From an uncultured Pseudomonadota bacterium (GTDB lineage: Bacteria; Babelota; Babeliae; Babelales; JAUPTZ01), in contig CAYSBJ010000001.1 of the NCBI GenBank assembly GCA_964429275.1, forward strand, positions 265,776 through 329,775: a stretch of DNA of 64,000 nucleotides, given 5' to 3'. The position numbers were made by a program. Positions 48,001 through 51,000 of this stretch are shown here, piece after piece. Every line of letters begins with the position of its first letter. Position 1 is the stretch's first letter.

Positions 48001-51000
48001 AACACCAGAAAATATCTTAGTGGTGCCGCGGCAGCTCTTGATGACTCGTGGCCTGTTGGCTCAGACACCAGGGTTTGTTGTGGCAGGTGCCACTCTAGGG
48101 CAAGAAATTGAAGAGTTAGTAAGAACCGGCGGGCAGTTCTTGCCGCGACCGGATATGGAAGAAGATCCATCATATAAGCAAATTATTCCGTATACCGTTT
48201 TTGTCCACAATCGCCAGGTGTTTGTGATGCAGCGAGGTCGCGGGGCAGGGGAACAGCGGTTGGCAGAAAAATATACTCTTGGCATTGGCGGGCATGTCCG
48301 GCAGAAAGATCTGACGACTGGCGGGCTTGCCGAATGGGGACGTCGTGAATTTGAAGAAGAAATTGCCTACGCCGGCCGATACTGTGGGCTGAGCCTGTTT
48401 GGCTTGGTTAACGATGATTCTAATGCGGTGGGCCAGGTGCACCTAGGCGCCGTATTTGTGCTTGAGGGAACGACTGATGTCATTAAAGTCCGGTCGGAGC
48501 TCAAATCGGGTATGCTGATGGACCGTGAGGCCTGTTTGCTGGTGCGGGGACAGATGGAGACGTGGAGTCAGTACGTGCTTGATGCGTTGATCATAGCTAA
48601 CATTATTTAGCTCTGAGAGCGAAGCAGAGCGCGAGAGCAAGGCTTTTTTGATGTACTAACCAATTCAAAGGTTATTTTGCGGCGCTCAAAAGGCCCCCCG
48701 CTCGGCTTCCGACTTTTTTGTCTCGCTTAGACAGCCCGTTTGGGGCTGCTCGACAAAAACCGTAGTCGCCTCGAAGGGGCCATTTTCCCTTTGCAAACCT
48801 GACTTGGAAAGTATCTAGATTTTGTATCTGCGAGAAATCGGGCCGCAGTTGCTCCAAGGAGCGAGTTCGGCTTTTTGCGTAGCAAAAACGCATGTTTGAG
48901 CGGGAGGGGTAATTCTGGACGAGCGCAGCAGCCTAGTGCCTGACTTGCTCCCATAGCTTATATAAATTATTGAGATCAAGCTGCTGAGCCCGCAAGCGCA
49001 ACAACTCTTCTGGCAAGTGCTGCCATTTATATTTCGTACGACGCAAATTATTCCCGAGCGTTTGCCGTGGGCTGACAAAGCAGGCACGAATGAAGGCCCA
49101 GAAGGCCGTCGGGTCAGTGATCGGCATTAAAGCCGTTCGTGGCTGAAATCGTACTAATCTGCTCATCACCTTGGGCGCCGGCACAAAGAAGTGCGGCGGA
49201 ACCCGTTCATATGCAGTGAAGTTAAAATAATATTGTAGGTAGATAGAAACGGCCCCATAGCGGCGTCCGCTTGTGTGGGTAACCCGTTCAGCTGCTTCTT
49301 CTTGAATCATGACCATGCCGTCATCAAAAAGGGTGTGGTTTTGGGAAAATTGCTCAAAAAGTGGAAAAGTGATGACGTACGGCAGATTTGCTAAGAGAAC
49401 CAATCGTTCCCCCTCTTTTTTAAGGCTGGCAAAGTCAAATTGCAGGGCATCGACGTTGTGGATGGTGAGGCGCGGGTCATGAATAGTGTCTGCTAGGCGC
49501 TCAGCCCAGTCCGGGTCAATTTCAATGACATGGAGCGCCTTGCACTTGCTGTCTAGAATGGCGCGGGTCAAAATGCCGTCACCACAGCCAATTTCTACGA
49601 CTGTCGTATCAGGAGTAATGGTAATGGCAGAGAGCATAGTGTTGATTGGCTCTTGCGAGATTAAAAAGTTTTGGCCAAGGTGTCGCTTTTGACGCGGGAG
49701 TGCTTGGGCTGCTTGTGCTTGAGGACGAAACTTGTTTTTATATTGAGAACGATGGGCCACGTGTTTTACCTATATGCTGTTGTTTGCTATGAAAATGAGG
49801 GTATAGTATACTCGATTCTCTAAAAATTATGTTCTTTGATGTTTTTGTGGGGGCGTTTTTGGTTTCGACGTGTTACATACGGCTATGAACGCATGCCGAG
49901 TTTGGCTCCGGAACTCGTAAAAAAAAGGTGCAAATCAATAAATGCAGAATCTAACGGTTCTGTGAATACATCTTACAACTTGATGAATGCTTACAAGCCT
50001 GTGACCCTTGGTCACGTGTTTGCTGGCTTTAACGCTGCTGGCAGCTTTGCTGCTGTTGCTGCGTAGTCGTCAACTAGTTGATGCTATTCATCTTGTAAAT
50101 AGGGCCCCGTCTATCTGGCTCTCTTACTCGTATTACCCATGATAGAATCGTGTCACAAGGTTTTTTAGTTGTGTACTGACGCGATATACAAAACTAACCC
50201 GTCTTCGTGGCACTGTCTGCGATGCTTTGAAGATGTGGTAAAAATCGCAGTCCAGCATGGAGTTTGCTTGTAGTTACGTGTGATGCGGACATGGGTTCAA
50301 CTCCCATCGCCTCCACCACTCGCCTTCGCACACGCTGCGTGCGACAAAGCGCACGAGGTGTGACTACGGCATAGCGGGGCCTTCAAAGGCACCACAAGCC
50401 GTAGTATCACCGTCAGTGTGTAACGCAGCCCGCTAGGGCAAGTGCGATGCGAGTGTCACGCCATAGTCCCCGTAAGGGCGACGGCGGACTGGCAGGCAAA
50501 ATTACCTCTAGGTTCTGACCCGCCGGGTCTTACTCTCTAGGCCTCTCTAGCCAAAAAACATCCTTTATTCGGGAATCTCATGAAAAAAATCAAACTTTCT
50601 ACCATCCTTACTCTTTCCTTTTCTCTTCTTCTCCTTGTTGCATCTGCGAATCCTTTCGAAGGCATTTTACGGACTGCGCGTGAAGAACGGGCAGCGCTGA
50701 CTAGTCCAAGCACCTTTGCGCCTGGATTTAGCCTGGGAAGTTCATTTTCATATACAAAAAAACGCATAGGCCAAAGCGGAATTCCAATAGCCGCTTCAGT
50801 TGGCACCACCGTGGCTCTTTCGCTTCTTTTTGAGCGATTTGCTAAAACCGAGTCTCGCACTCGTGCCAAGAAAATGGCAGTGTTATCATACCTTTTAGCT
50901 GCGGTCTATGGATCTCAATTGCGTCAGCGTGGTGAGCAATACAATAATCTTTCACTAACTGACCCAATGCTTTTTAACCGCCTTCTGCTTGTTTTTGGCA

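Follow-up and report, generated by a model that had tools for sequence, protein, structure and literature searches.

The window analyzed here, a 64,000-nt stretch of one contig from the genome of an uncultured member of the Babelota (G000: 1.208 Mb, 8 contigs, 97.95% complete), carries a tmRNA gene and tRNA genes with and without a folded repeat at their 3′ ends. The repeats fall into two classes; R1, a covariance model of the 5′ domain of class 1, was built from seven copies. The features concerned, with coordinates along the window, are:

10713..10888, minus strand: tRNA-Lys(TTT) and tRNA-Glu(TTC) gene pair, a contrast case (ARAGORN)
25886..25975, plus strand: tRNA-Ser(CGA) gene with encoded CCA (ARAGORN, Rfam)
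25976..26155, plus strand: second class 1 element of the window, beginning one base past the tRNA-Ser(CGA) CCA (R1 match, E 1.9e-24)
37494..37568, plus strand: tRNA-Gly(GCC) gene (ARAGORN)
37569..37606, plus strand: short decayed trailer behind tRNA-Gly(GCC), opening with the P1 motif of the family (TCCTTCGC)
49849..50318, plus strand: tmRNA gene, with its encoded CCA at 50316-50318 (ARAGORN; Rfam RF00023, 123 bits)
50319..50453, plus strand: class 1 5′ multi-helix domain (MFE fold; pair counts over 8 copies; R1 match, E 1.2e-35)
50455..50489, plus strand: class 1 3′ hairpin module, GTCACGCC ATA GTCCCC..GGG C GAC GGCG GAC (helices 9-11 of the 8-copy pair counts)
50489..50497, plus strand: CTGGCAGGC tail motif (by sequence; the same motif lies 3′ of the hairpin in loci L189, L194, L201 and L203)

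The class 1 copy adjoining the tmRNA gene occupies 50319-50490 (172 nt, GC-rich), its first base lying directly 3′ of the tmRNA CCA and its last hairpin closing at about 50489-50490. Helix P1 of this copy joins 50319-50329 to about 50444-50453 and encloses a junction of helices P2-P6; in the wider family (see below), many copies have the CTGGCAGGC tail motif behind their 3′ hairpin. The trailer of tRNA-Gly(GCC) has diverged faster than its own flanks between G000 and the relative G004. At the Lys(TTT)/Glu(TTC) pair, an ordinary terminator (hairpin plus T-run) lies behind the last gene in place of an element.

Across G000 there are 36 tRNA genes and one real tmRNA gene, and the CCA is encoded in all 37; a second tmRNA call by ARAGORN is spurious and overlaps tRNA-Cys. 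R1 yields ten matches at E ≤ 1, nine of which are on the sense strand and start one base past a CCA (Leu-CAA, Ser-CGA, tmRNA, Phe, Arg-TCT, Arg-CCT, Leu-AAG, Tyr and Leu-CAG), the tenth being the antisense of the tmRNA copy. The initial annotation had listed class 1 copies at nine sites, and our independently built R1 recovers these same places; BLAST with the tmRNA copy as query also retrieves the other class 1 copies, which differ from one another by 12-30%, as against 6% between G000 and G004. A spacing of 0-4 nt past the CCA, as first given, holds with regard to abutment but not range, which becomes 0 once P1 of the Phe copy is read from GCTTTCGC. Models R2 and R3 (see below) place class 2 elements behind Cys, Thr-TGT, Lys-CTT, Arg-TCG and also Leu-TAA; of the six class 2 copies originally proposed, these first four stand, Ala-GGC and Met are recognizable but weaker, and Leu-TAA is an addition. 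The earlier tally of 15 element-bearing genes out of 37 is correct as to the 37 CCA-encoding genes, but the 15 is a lower bound only. Shorter or decayed trailers with the same starting NNYTWCGC motif follow Ser-GGA, Ser-TGA, Gly-GCC, Gly-TCC, Thr-CGT and Val-TAC. Similarly, the statement that the repeats occur nowhere else in the genome applies to whole elements but not to their modules: the 3′ hairpin module is also found at C2:97058-97119 and, inverted, at C2:97565-97626, on both sides of tRNA-Arg-CCT and its element, as well as at C2:16462, C1:425271, C3:141270 and, inverted, inside the Leu-CAG copy.

Eight of the class 1 copies share a fold of 59 pairs with 87.3% of cells paired, as against 31.6-42.2% with the partners slid; 16 pairs are altered on both sides, and 0 of 500 shuffles match the real alignment in pairing, in number of compensatory cells or in covariation score. 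The tmRNA copy taken singly folds at -86.8 kcal/mol (z = -5.6). The compensatory changes and the R1 matches together bear out the initial description of the repeats as real, folded, strand-specific in placement and abutting the CCA. Their shared plan is the CCA, an 8-nt P1 strand, an internal NNN-UGG segment, a variable part, the P1 return strand and a hairpin, the last of which is conserved in sequence and carries a symmetric internal loop (GNA/GNA). No partner protein was identified. The NNN-UGG segment, which is complementary to the CCA plus trailer bases 1-3, lies about 25 nt downstream, or farther where a P2 hairpin is inserted, and trailer bases 1-8 are also complementary to the distal strand, the two constituting P1. 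In an order-wide set of 20 copies from 16 genomes, 97.5% of cells are paired both in P1 (8 pairs, 4 altered on both sides) and in the helix between the CCA with bases 1-3 and NNN-UGG (6 pairs, 3 altered on both sides), as compared to 18-42% in slid controls for these helices. MFE folds display the CCA hairpin in 18/20 copies (5′ part alone) and P1 in 13/20 (whole element). The repeat unit begins at the gene's own CCA and probably includes it.

Folding favors the sense strand over the antisense in 8/8 class 2 copies of the genus, 15/20 order-wide copies and 5/8 class 1 copies. G-U pairs stand against A-C mismatches at 30 versus 26 in class 1, 21 versus 10 in genus class 2 and 4 versus 7 order-wide; since the former are not clearly commoner, selection on the fold may act on the DNA, or on both strands. 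Some specific structural readings were rejected, namely an HDV-like 3′ domain (a nested MFE hairpin suffices, the inner hairpin varies freely and no Rfam family matches), a K-turn in the conserved hairpin (its internal-loop strands are equal in length, with no 3-nt bulge) and pairing of the a2 GCUWC segment with the CCGAAGC strand of the hairpin (a2 varies, its partner is constant and there is no covariation).

We found a much wider distribution with R3, a covariance model made without any sequence of this genus and only from other families: it matches 105 of the 151 genomes sampled from the phylum, in 15 of the 18 families sampled, with 46 of the 151 lacking a match. Outside the phylum, three of ten hand-picked outgroup genomes (two Geomonas and one Nitrospirae MAG) have matches that directly follow a CCA, namely that of tRNA-Ala, tRNA-Leu and a tmRNA-like end, and the element is present in 0/40 other genomes of the Geomonas class. 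R3 recovers the class 2 copies of G000 and aligns the class 1 copies end to end with correct borders, but at E values of only 0.02-0.9; class 1 was found in 0/60 relatives. Class 1 is a local, enlarged, lineage-specific variant of a wider class 2-type family, which makes up the opening 80-190 nt of the 3′ trailer in tRNA/tmRNA transcription units. The element is thus not a novelty of this genome, as had been supposed, given the class 2-type in 105/151 genomes of the phylum and in three of other phyla; the initial view that selection acts on the fold and not on the sequence is not supported either, this old element being conserved in both.

The linkage to tRNA ends extends to these relatives. 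In G003, 15 of 19 R2 matches lie directly past a tRNA/tmRNA CCA (3-6 nt beyond the tRNA end as drawn by Rfam, at the discriminator), and the others comprise one at a distance of 48 nt, two tandem second copies and one elsewhere. Loci from other families follow an annotated tRNA in 6/9 cases and a tRNA-like 3′ end in 3/9, and a tRNA lies immediately upstream of 14 of 20 further loci. Across five complete genomes, with 150 of their 179 tRNAs listed, 33 of 80 matches begin at the discriminator of one of these listed tRNAs, and another 10 fall 6-400 nt downstream of one; among the remaining matches, a tRNA or tmRNA precedes 13 of 20 that were inspected. The stretches upstream of three non-tRNA copies, considered as candidate CCA-ended RNAs, gave no Rfam match and no convincing mutual alignment.

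Occupancy of individual sites changes fast between close relatives: the tmRNA site carries class 1 in G000 and class 2 in G003, shows a 21-nt remnant in G004 and has no sense-oriented element in G001 or G002, and the flanks of this site are 94% identical between G000 and G004. The site in G004 had been taken as the empty member of a filled/empty pair; this pair is not clean, as the site retains both element termini and hence appears to have undergone an internal deletion. No transposase, reverse transcriptase or dedicated integrase that would explain the turnover was found in G000. Reverse transcriptases (PF00078), which a retro-element such as a retron, a group II intron or retroplasmid-type copying onto CCA ends would require, have 0 matches; in the recombinase search, which covered the tyrosine type, the only two found are Xer-sized (324 and 311 aa) and neither adjoins an element; and the Y1_Tnp genes (C2:268007-268366 and C1:444251-444604) have, as previously noted, unrelated ends, their flanks carrying an IS200-type, CCCCAGGCTTTTAAACCTGGGG-type hairpin unlike the element. 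Overall, the initial interpretation as a new small mobile element is partly supported.

As to 3′ processing, RNase Z, the RNB domain of RNase II/R and the CCA-adding enzyme family were not found in G000, in line with the initial annotation, but its picture of missing enzymes is only partly right, as the genome does have RNase PH, PNPase, RNase E/G and RNase P RNA. We rejected the idea that the element goes along with absence of the CCA-adding enzyme, as this enzyme family is present in 143/151 genomes of the phylum sample, the element being found in 105/151 of a likewise drawn sample. RNA contigs of near relatives from several metatranscriptomes span 49862-50318, with their ends at 50311-50318, and one run shows poly-A immediately after 50318; the stretch 50346-50700 has zero RNA-contig cover in four metatranscriptome runs containing a near relative's tmRNA, from strains that may lack the element. 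RNA contigs that end at the tmRNA CCA lend no support to a stable trailer RNA, which is weak evidence.

The element shares its transcription-unit position with tRNA 3′ external transcribed spacers and intrinsic terminators. Ordinary tRNA trailers differ in being neither conserved nor repeated and in leaving the bases behind the CCA single-stranded. About half of the class 2-type copies resemble terminators in having a short hairpin and then a U-run (e.g., the Arg-TCG trailer, where a terminator scan calls GGCTGGCAGGCCAGCT+TTTTT), whereas class 1 has no hairpin with a U-run behind it. A small hairpin plus U-run was rejected as the main function, with a T-run past GCCA in about 9-10 of 20 order-wide copies and the small hairpin in 1/20 MFE folds. 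Two class 1 copies end 8-12 nt from a convergent ORF stop with no other terminator between, and unit-ending tRNA genes without the element (Glu, Gln, Met and Asp) have ordinary terminators. The orientation of the downstream ORF was uninformative as a functional clue (14 same-strand versus 6 convergent for 20 element-bearing trailers, with mixed gene kinds).

No Rfam 15 family matches the element, consistent with the earlier statement that no RNA family of such shape is described. At gathering score the window yields tmRNA and tRNAs only, 50300-50560 at E ≤ 10 yields one 22-nt chance-level match on the opposite strand, and six class 2-type loci at E ≤ 1 yield tRNAs plus weak plastid or antisense noise on tRNAs; the scope of Rfam 15 includes tRNA-like, T-box, HDV-like, hatchet, hammerhead, twister and pistol RNAs and group I/II introns. 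No description of such CCA-abutting elements was found in the searched literature. Among the multicopy intergenic sequences of Geobacter listed in the consulted passages of four papers, none is tied to tRNA 3′ ends (PMC6561590, PMC2700814, PMC3543383, PMC2996986), and the motifs searched for were not found in 12 of the 15 supplement files of the last.

We tentatively favor, with somewhat less than even confidence, the reading that the element is a cis-acting 3′ trailer module of tRNA/tmRNA precursors, which pairs with their CCA end and has been spread by recombination. It would act in cis on the precursor RNA: during transcription the CCA end would first enter the short hairpin with NNN-UGG, and once the distal strand emerges the start of the trailer would be held in P1. 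The conserved hairpin might serve as the docking site for a conserved host factor, and the element could mask or define the 3′ end until the trailer is removed, possibly by an RNase E/G cut and subsequent RNase PH/PNPase trimming. Where an ordinary terminator is absent, it may also close the transcription unit. Recombination would exchange and homogenize copies among the tRNA genes of one genome, thus producing the fast turnover and mobile look, and class 1 would have originated within this species as the inner part lying between P1 and the 3′ hairpin became more elaborate. Against this reading, the element is dispensable, with only about 40-60% of the tRNA genes of a genome having it and 46 of 151 genomes giving no match, a P1-type helix from +1 should hinder rather than help RNase PH, and modules that are inverted and away from tRNAs are more typical of REP- or MITE-like DNA repeats. 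To our knowledge, a folded module welded to the CCA does not feature in textbook schemes of how bacterial tRNA 3′ ends mature, of termination or of mobile DNA. If the cis-acting trailer module is real, about 40% or more of the tRNA genes (in G000 and G003, the genomes studied most closely), along with tmRNA, carry a conserved folded module with a CCA-complementary strand, raising the testable question of how correct CCA ends are made and protected in a bacterium that has neither RNase Z nor RNase II/R and whose genus also lacks the CCA-adding enzyme.

The main rival, which we consider rather unlikely, is a selfish non-autonomous mobile element (MITE/REP-like or RNA-mediated) that homes to CCA ends, with the internal NNN-UGG as the guide pairing with the target CCA and any effects on tRNAs secondary. 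Such a guide topology resembles the left-end guide/target pairing of IS200/IS605 or the exon-binding sites of mobile introns. Several observations point this way. Nearly every trailer is of another class or state in G000 and G004 despite flanks that are 94% identical; at Ser-GCT, which is filled in G004 and empty in G000, the element sits exactly between the CCA and the old trailer. Copies are far more alike within than between genomes, tandem and nested copies exist, and G112 has three near-identical copies, behind Arg-TCT, behind Arg-TCG and one in tandem. Non-tRNA copies keep an NCCA in front (L210, L212, L218, L224 and L227), so that the CCA behaves as part of the unit. The modules found in both orientations, the unclear G-U excess and the patchy occurrence outside the phylum (two Geomonas and one Nitrospirae MAG, with none in the 40 others of the Geomonas class) also fit. 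However, no enzyme that could move it was found (no reverse transcriptase, only the two Xer-sized recombinases, and Y1 genes with unrelated ends); a 3-nt target alone cannot account for the near-confinement to tRNA/tmRNA ends; motif conservation across the phylum and beyond is unusual among MITEs; and the divergence between class 1 copies, being larger than that between G000 and G004, does not fit a simple recent burst.

Like the element, REP/BIME, ERIC, Correia-type and MITE-like repeats and REP-RAYT systems are short, GC-rich, modular, folded and present in many copies, and they share its location at gene 3′ ends, both module orientations and within-genome homogenization. They differ in having neither a rule of abutting tRNA/tmRNA CCAs nor a CCA-complementary segment, and in being typical of a genus or family rather than phylum-wide; REPs pair with a RAYT-type Y1 transposase, whereas the Y1 genes of G000 have ends unrelated to the element. 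IS200/IS605 elements transpose as single-stranded DNA, the target being read by a guide beside a subterminal hairpin. These and their PATE derivatives resemble the element in oriented insertion 3′ of a short target without target duplication, in subterminal hairpins at both ends and in an internal target-complementary segment. Their 3-5 nt target would, however, serve genome-wide and not at tRNA ends only, and the element's left and right hairpins resemble neither each other nor the ends of the two IS200-type copies of G000; a cognate transposase was not found.

A bolder proposition, which we regard as improbable, is that these sequences constitute a new class of nucleic-acid element that recognizes the universal CCA of tRNA/tmRNA through its own UGG guide, either for homing or for processing or hand-over of the precursor, precisely at A76, and that has persisted across at least three phyla. 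Among known systems, one to compare is the T-box leader, in which a UGGN bulge pairs with the NCCA end of uncharged tRNA: both have a conserved UGG in a structured RNA complementary to CCA, and alternative helices compete. Unlike the T-box, the element would pair in cis with the CCA to which it is attached as the trailer, lacks a specifier loop and lies 3′ of tRNA genes, not 5′ of an aminoacyl-tRNA synthetase or amino-acid gene; no RF00230-type match appeared in any Rfam scan of the window and the six loci. Were CCA recognition by the guide true, homing would amount to mobility without a target-specific protein, and processing would yield a mature CCA-OH without RNase Z or the CCA-adding enzyme. 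Whether a repeat can locate its target by pairing with three universal bases is itself a testable question.

Quite improbable is a recombination (attachment) site used or carried by islands or phages, which would make the tRNA-adjacent copies footprints of past integration. The location at tRNA/tmRNA 3′ ends is that of integrase att sites, and a 9.4-kb island of G177, with ankyrin-repeat proteins, an IS4/5 transposase and PhzF, lies between 194-nt direct repeats, each of which takes in the final 16 nt of tmRNA, the entire element and about 55 nt more. An element in G098 and one in the Nitrospirae MAG come after a duplicated tRNA 3′ fragment, and selection on the fold at the DNA level would account for the weak G-U signal. 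Yet the G177 island has no integrase ORF (≥90 aa), G000 has only the two Xer-like recombinases, and no island adjoins the majority of the 15-26 copies that a genome carries. Moreover, a hairpin-pattern scan of 2.9 million viral contigs gave one match, to a seemingly unrelated sequence without the rest of the element. Unlike att sites, the element starts past the gene and not within its 3′ half, occurs at many island-free tRNAs and has RNA-like covarying helices; a CCA-complementary hairpin or P1 is not needed by ordinary att sites.

A self-cleaving RNA that cuts its own 5′ border (CCA|n1, within the CCA hairpin or at the foot of P1), freeing the tRNA without an exonuclease, is highly improbable. 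The exact border, a junction that resembles a cleavage site inside a conserved helix with an internal guide-like strand, the conserved unpaired nucleotides and internal loop, and the absence of RNase Z, RNB and the CCA-adding family from G000 would suit it. It matches no known ribozyme family in Rfam, however, and small self-cleaving RNAs leave a 2′,3′-cyclic phosphate, a product that would block charging. In addition, the inner parts of class 1 and class 2 have little in common, RNase PH and RNase E/G are present, and many tRNAs manage without the element. The least credible alternative is a trans-acting small RNA, a passenger on tRNA promoters freed by processing to act elsewhere, with the enterobacterial 3′ external transcribed spacer RNAs for comparison: the stable fold (z = -5.6), the many copies behind strong promoters and possible protein binding by the conserved hairpin are offset by inner parts that are highly variable, by conserved complementarity that is internal or to the CCA and to no outside target, and, as weak evidence, by deep RNA-contig cover of tmRNA with the adjoining element uncovered.

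On the practical side, tRNA-adjacent island prediction calls for caution, because the element is part of flanking repeats of the G177 type in at least one genome. It can also be used as a marker for the ends of tRNA transcription units, and its covariance model is new for annotating genomes of this little-known parasitic phylum.

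We found that the tmRNA gene in the window is directly followed by a folded element (class 1), which recurs behind tRNA genes of the same genome (G000). The features concerned are, in window coordinates:

49849-50318: tmRNA gene, with encoded CCA end
from 50319: class 1 element after the tmRNA, 172 nt, GC-rich
first 11 nt of that element, paired with about 50444-50453: multi-helix domain closed by P1, the helix of the first trailer bases with a distal return strand
50455-50489: separate hairpin of the class 1 element
25976-26155: second element copy, directly after tRNA-Ser(CGA)

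The tmRNA copy folds at -86.8 kcal/mol (z = -5.6 against 200 shuffles) and, used as a BLAST query, recovers the other class 1 copies in the assembly (1.208 Mb in eight contigs), which encodes 36 tRNAs and one tmRNA, 37 of 37 with a genomic CCA. R1, a covariance model of the class 1 5' domain, reproduces the nine abutting class 1 copies of the initial annotation, all nine starting at the base after a CCA, and its sole further match lies on the opposite strand of the tmRNA copy. The class 1 fold proposed there is upheld on eight copies, with 59 pairs at 87.3% pairing (32-42% once the partners are slid), 16 of them changed on both sides, and values that were reached in 0 of 500 shuffles. The smaller class 2 elements follow tRNA-Cys, Thr-TGT, Lys-CTT, Arg-TCG and Leu-TAA, with weaker copies after Ala-GGC and Met. 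The copies in the earlier count of 15 among 37 genes are real, but that number is a lower bound, since shorter remnants with the same NNYTWCGC start lie behind at least six further tRNAs. The assertion that the elements occur nowhere else in the genome needs correcting for their parts, as the 3' hairpin module is found elsewhere too, also in inverted orientation. The four unit-ending tRNA genes without such a trailer all have ordinary hairpin and T-run terminators.

Two arrangements of this module were seen in G000. Inverted repeats of 62 nt (95% complementary) surround tRNA-Arg(CCT) and its class 1 element (C2:97058-97626; positions 1332-1900 of locus L021), each arm being the 3' hairpin module with TGGCAGGCC after it. 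In the Leu-CAG class 1 copy (L007, C3:201759-202002), the inverted module forms a 60-nt insert, and a near-identical stretch lies in the tRNA-Thr(CGT) trailer (L015, C3:141087). The GC content of contigs C4-C8 (3-12.5 kb) is 41-70%, at 60-70% in four of the five, with the three large contigs at 46%; these small contigs lack tRNA genes and probably do not belong in the genome bin.

Across the wider family, the 5' part runs from the CCA through n1n2n3-UWCGC, in which n1-n3 are the first three trailer bases and the whole forms the P1 5' strand, to YAARG or an inserted hairpin; the middle is GCUWC-N3N2N1-UGG-C, then NNN-GCCA (often with a U-run next) and an AT-rich variable part; and GCGWA-N3N2N1, followed by UG, supplies the P1 3' strand. 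The hairpin reads GUCCGCC-GWA-GC...GC-GWA-GGAGGAC, with a symmetric GNA/GNA internal loop and often CUGGCAGGCCA again on its 3' side. In a 20-copy alignment, pairing reaches 97.5% in P1, where four pairs have changed on both sides, and also 97.5% in the helix of CCA plus n1-n3 with NNN-UGG, where three have (triplets and partners: GCU/AGC, GCC/GGC, UAC/GUA, ACC/GGU, ACU/AGU, UCC/GGA and GUC/GAC); in the small UGGC/GCCA hairpin it is 77.7%, with little covariation. Minimum free energy folding of the 5' part alone yields the CCA hairpin for 18 of the 20 copies, and folding of the whole element yields P1 for 13. Because NCCA precedes even those copies without an upstream tRNA, the CCA is probably part of the element's own stem, common to the tRNA where both abut.

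Class 1 has no match among 60 relatives, four same-genus genomes included. In two of the same-genus genomes, G003 and G004, the trailers are rich in class 2-type elements, from which we built a second model, R2; it finds 19 copies in G003, five in G004 and four in G000. Those of G003 begin directly after a tRNA or tmRNA CCA in 15 cases, the others being one copy 48 nt away, two tandem second copies and one elsewhere. R2 matches occur in 20 of 146 genomes from other genera of the order (23 of 151 counting G000, G003 and G004), and the loci opened there also begin right after a CCA. A third model, R3, draws on 20 copies from 16 genomes, with no sequence from the window's genus, and matches 105 of 151 sampled genomes of the phylum, spread over 15 of 18 families, reaching at least 20 copies per genome among the 23 candidates scored for each. 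Five complete genomes have 26, 25, 15, 6 and 13 R3 matches, or 80 after removal of five antisense duplicates; among the tRNAs listed (150 of 179), at least 33 of these start at the discriminator base of a tRNA and at least 10 more lie 6-400 nt downstream of one. Of the remaining matches, 20 were fetched; a tRNA or tmRNA precedes 13 of these, a tRNA-like end precedes one, and six have no known RNA in front. R3 recovers the class 2 copies of G000 and aligns class 1 copies from the CCA through the end of the last hairpin at E 0.02-0.9 only. Class 1 has the frame of the wider family, a homology that rests on common motifs and architecture.

Ten outgroup genomes, chosen via AlaRS loci, were also searched with R3, which matches three: Geomonas diazotrophica Red69, Geomonas azotofigens Red51 and an uncultured Nitrospirae MAG (L167, L168 and L174). 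Matches there lie directly after the CCA of a tRNA-Ala in an rRNA spacer, a tRNA-Leu and a tmRNA-like 3' end, others behind a duplicated tRNA 3' fragment or behind no CCA-ended gene; at E<=1e-4, nothing was found in 40 other genomes of the Geomonas class. The family is not confined to one genome: it is densely represented in the window's phylum and turns up here and there in others. The organism itself probably belongs to the candidate phylum Dependentiae, judged from a genome of about 1 Mb, ankyrin-repeat proteins in a relative, the single order that the phylum shows in the sample, and a match with traits given in PMC6561590. The accompanying claim that no such RNA family or CCA-end element is described stands insofar as no Rfam 15 family matches and the literature searched, including the Geobacter genome papers apart from some supplementary alignments, describes no tRNA-CCA-abutting repeat.

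The exact and near-universal CCA juxtaposition, the covariation of helices in which the CCA takes part, and motifs conserved across the phylum and beyond suggest that the element's function concerns the tRNA 3' end and involves a conserved partner. We tentatively place first the reading of the element as a cis-acting trailer module, which would be transcribed with its tRNA or tmRNA. The analysis establishes the anatomy, the distribution and the enzyme inventory; that the element is transcribed, in what order it folds, how it is processed and how it spreads are inferred. Folding is better for the sense than for the antisense strand in 8/8, 15/20 and 5/8 copies of three sets. In four metatranscriptomes, RNA contigs over the tmRNA of a near relative stop at 50311-50318, one run with poly-A straight after the CCA, and display the mature tmRNA end; none of them covers the element, and they say nothing firm on the trailer.

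The initial annotation's list of missing 3'-processing enzymes holds in part: searches of G000 for the CCA-adding enzyme family, RNase Z and the RNB domain gave no match, but RNase PH, PNPase, RNase E/G and RNase P RNA are present. Of the 151 phylum genomes sampled, 143 have the CCA-adding family, and both window-genus genomes (G000 and G003) lack it; the element therefore does not stand in for this enzyme. The tRNA-Val(GAC) gene of G000 precedes the genes for PNPase (705 aa) and RNase PH (246-aa ORF; C3:182935-186400), and its trailer, near-identical in G004 in contrast to the element-bearing trailers, may be a leader of pnp.

A selfish repeat homing to CCA ends, which we rank second and regard as somewhat unlikely, draws support from the dispensability and fast turnover of the element, from its inverted modules and from the missing G-U signal, G-U pairs being not clearly commoner than A-C mismatches. 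Between G000 and G004, flanks are 94% identical, yet almost all trailers differ: behind Arg-TCT, Leu-CAA and Phe, G000 has class 1 where G004 has class 2, Ser-CGA has class 1 versus another variant, the tmRNA site has class 1 versus a 21-nt remnant with both termini kept, and Ser-GCT is filled in G004 and empty in G000. The tmRNA of G001, another close relative, has no element behind it and that of G002 inverted modules only; two further genomes (G112 and G041) have near-identical copies behind different tRNAs of the same genome. G000 encodes no reverse transcriptase, two Xer-sized tyrosine recombinases and two IS200-type Y1 transposases, whose ends are, as first noted, unrelated to the element.

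An attachment-site role is improbable. In the relative G177, a 9.4-kb island adjoining the tmRNA gene (L231, C1:444700-455200) is bordered by 194-nt direct repeats, each comprising the final 16 nt of the tmRNA, the element and a further 55 nt; the island showed no integrase ORF. It encodes three ankyrin-repeat proteins, of which one ends like a ParE toxin, as well as an IS4/5 DDE transposase and a PhzF-like protein. At loci L098 (G098) and L240 (the Nitrospirae MAG), a duplicated tRNA 3' fragment of about 20 nt, the usual scar of insertion at a tRNA 3' end, precedes the element; another copy of the same end, at L098 that of an intact tRNA-Asp, lies upstream at a distance of at most a few hundred bases. 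Self-cleavage we consider marginally less probable again, and a passenger small RNA the least probable of all.

Some further observations concern neighboring genes. The tmRNA tag given by ARAGORN looks wrong; the frame from window 49944 (49944-50066) encodes an unusually long tag of 40 residues with an ending of the usual type (...GSFAAVAA, then stop). At E<=0.001, no Pfam match was found for a 1795-aa ORF (52818-58205, minus strand) or for the ORFs at 46962-47774, 47960-48610 and 50580-51182. In G177, tRNA-Ser and its element are followed after about 190 nt by the small SRP RNA gene on the same strand (L217, C1:765150-765700), which may share one transcript with them.
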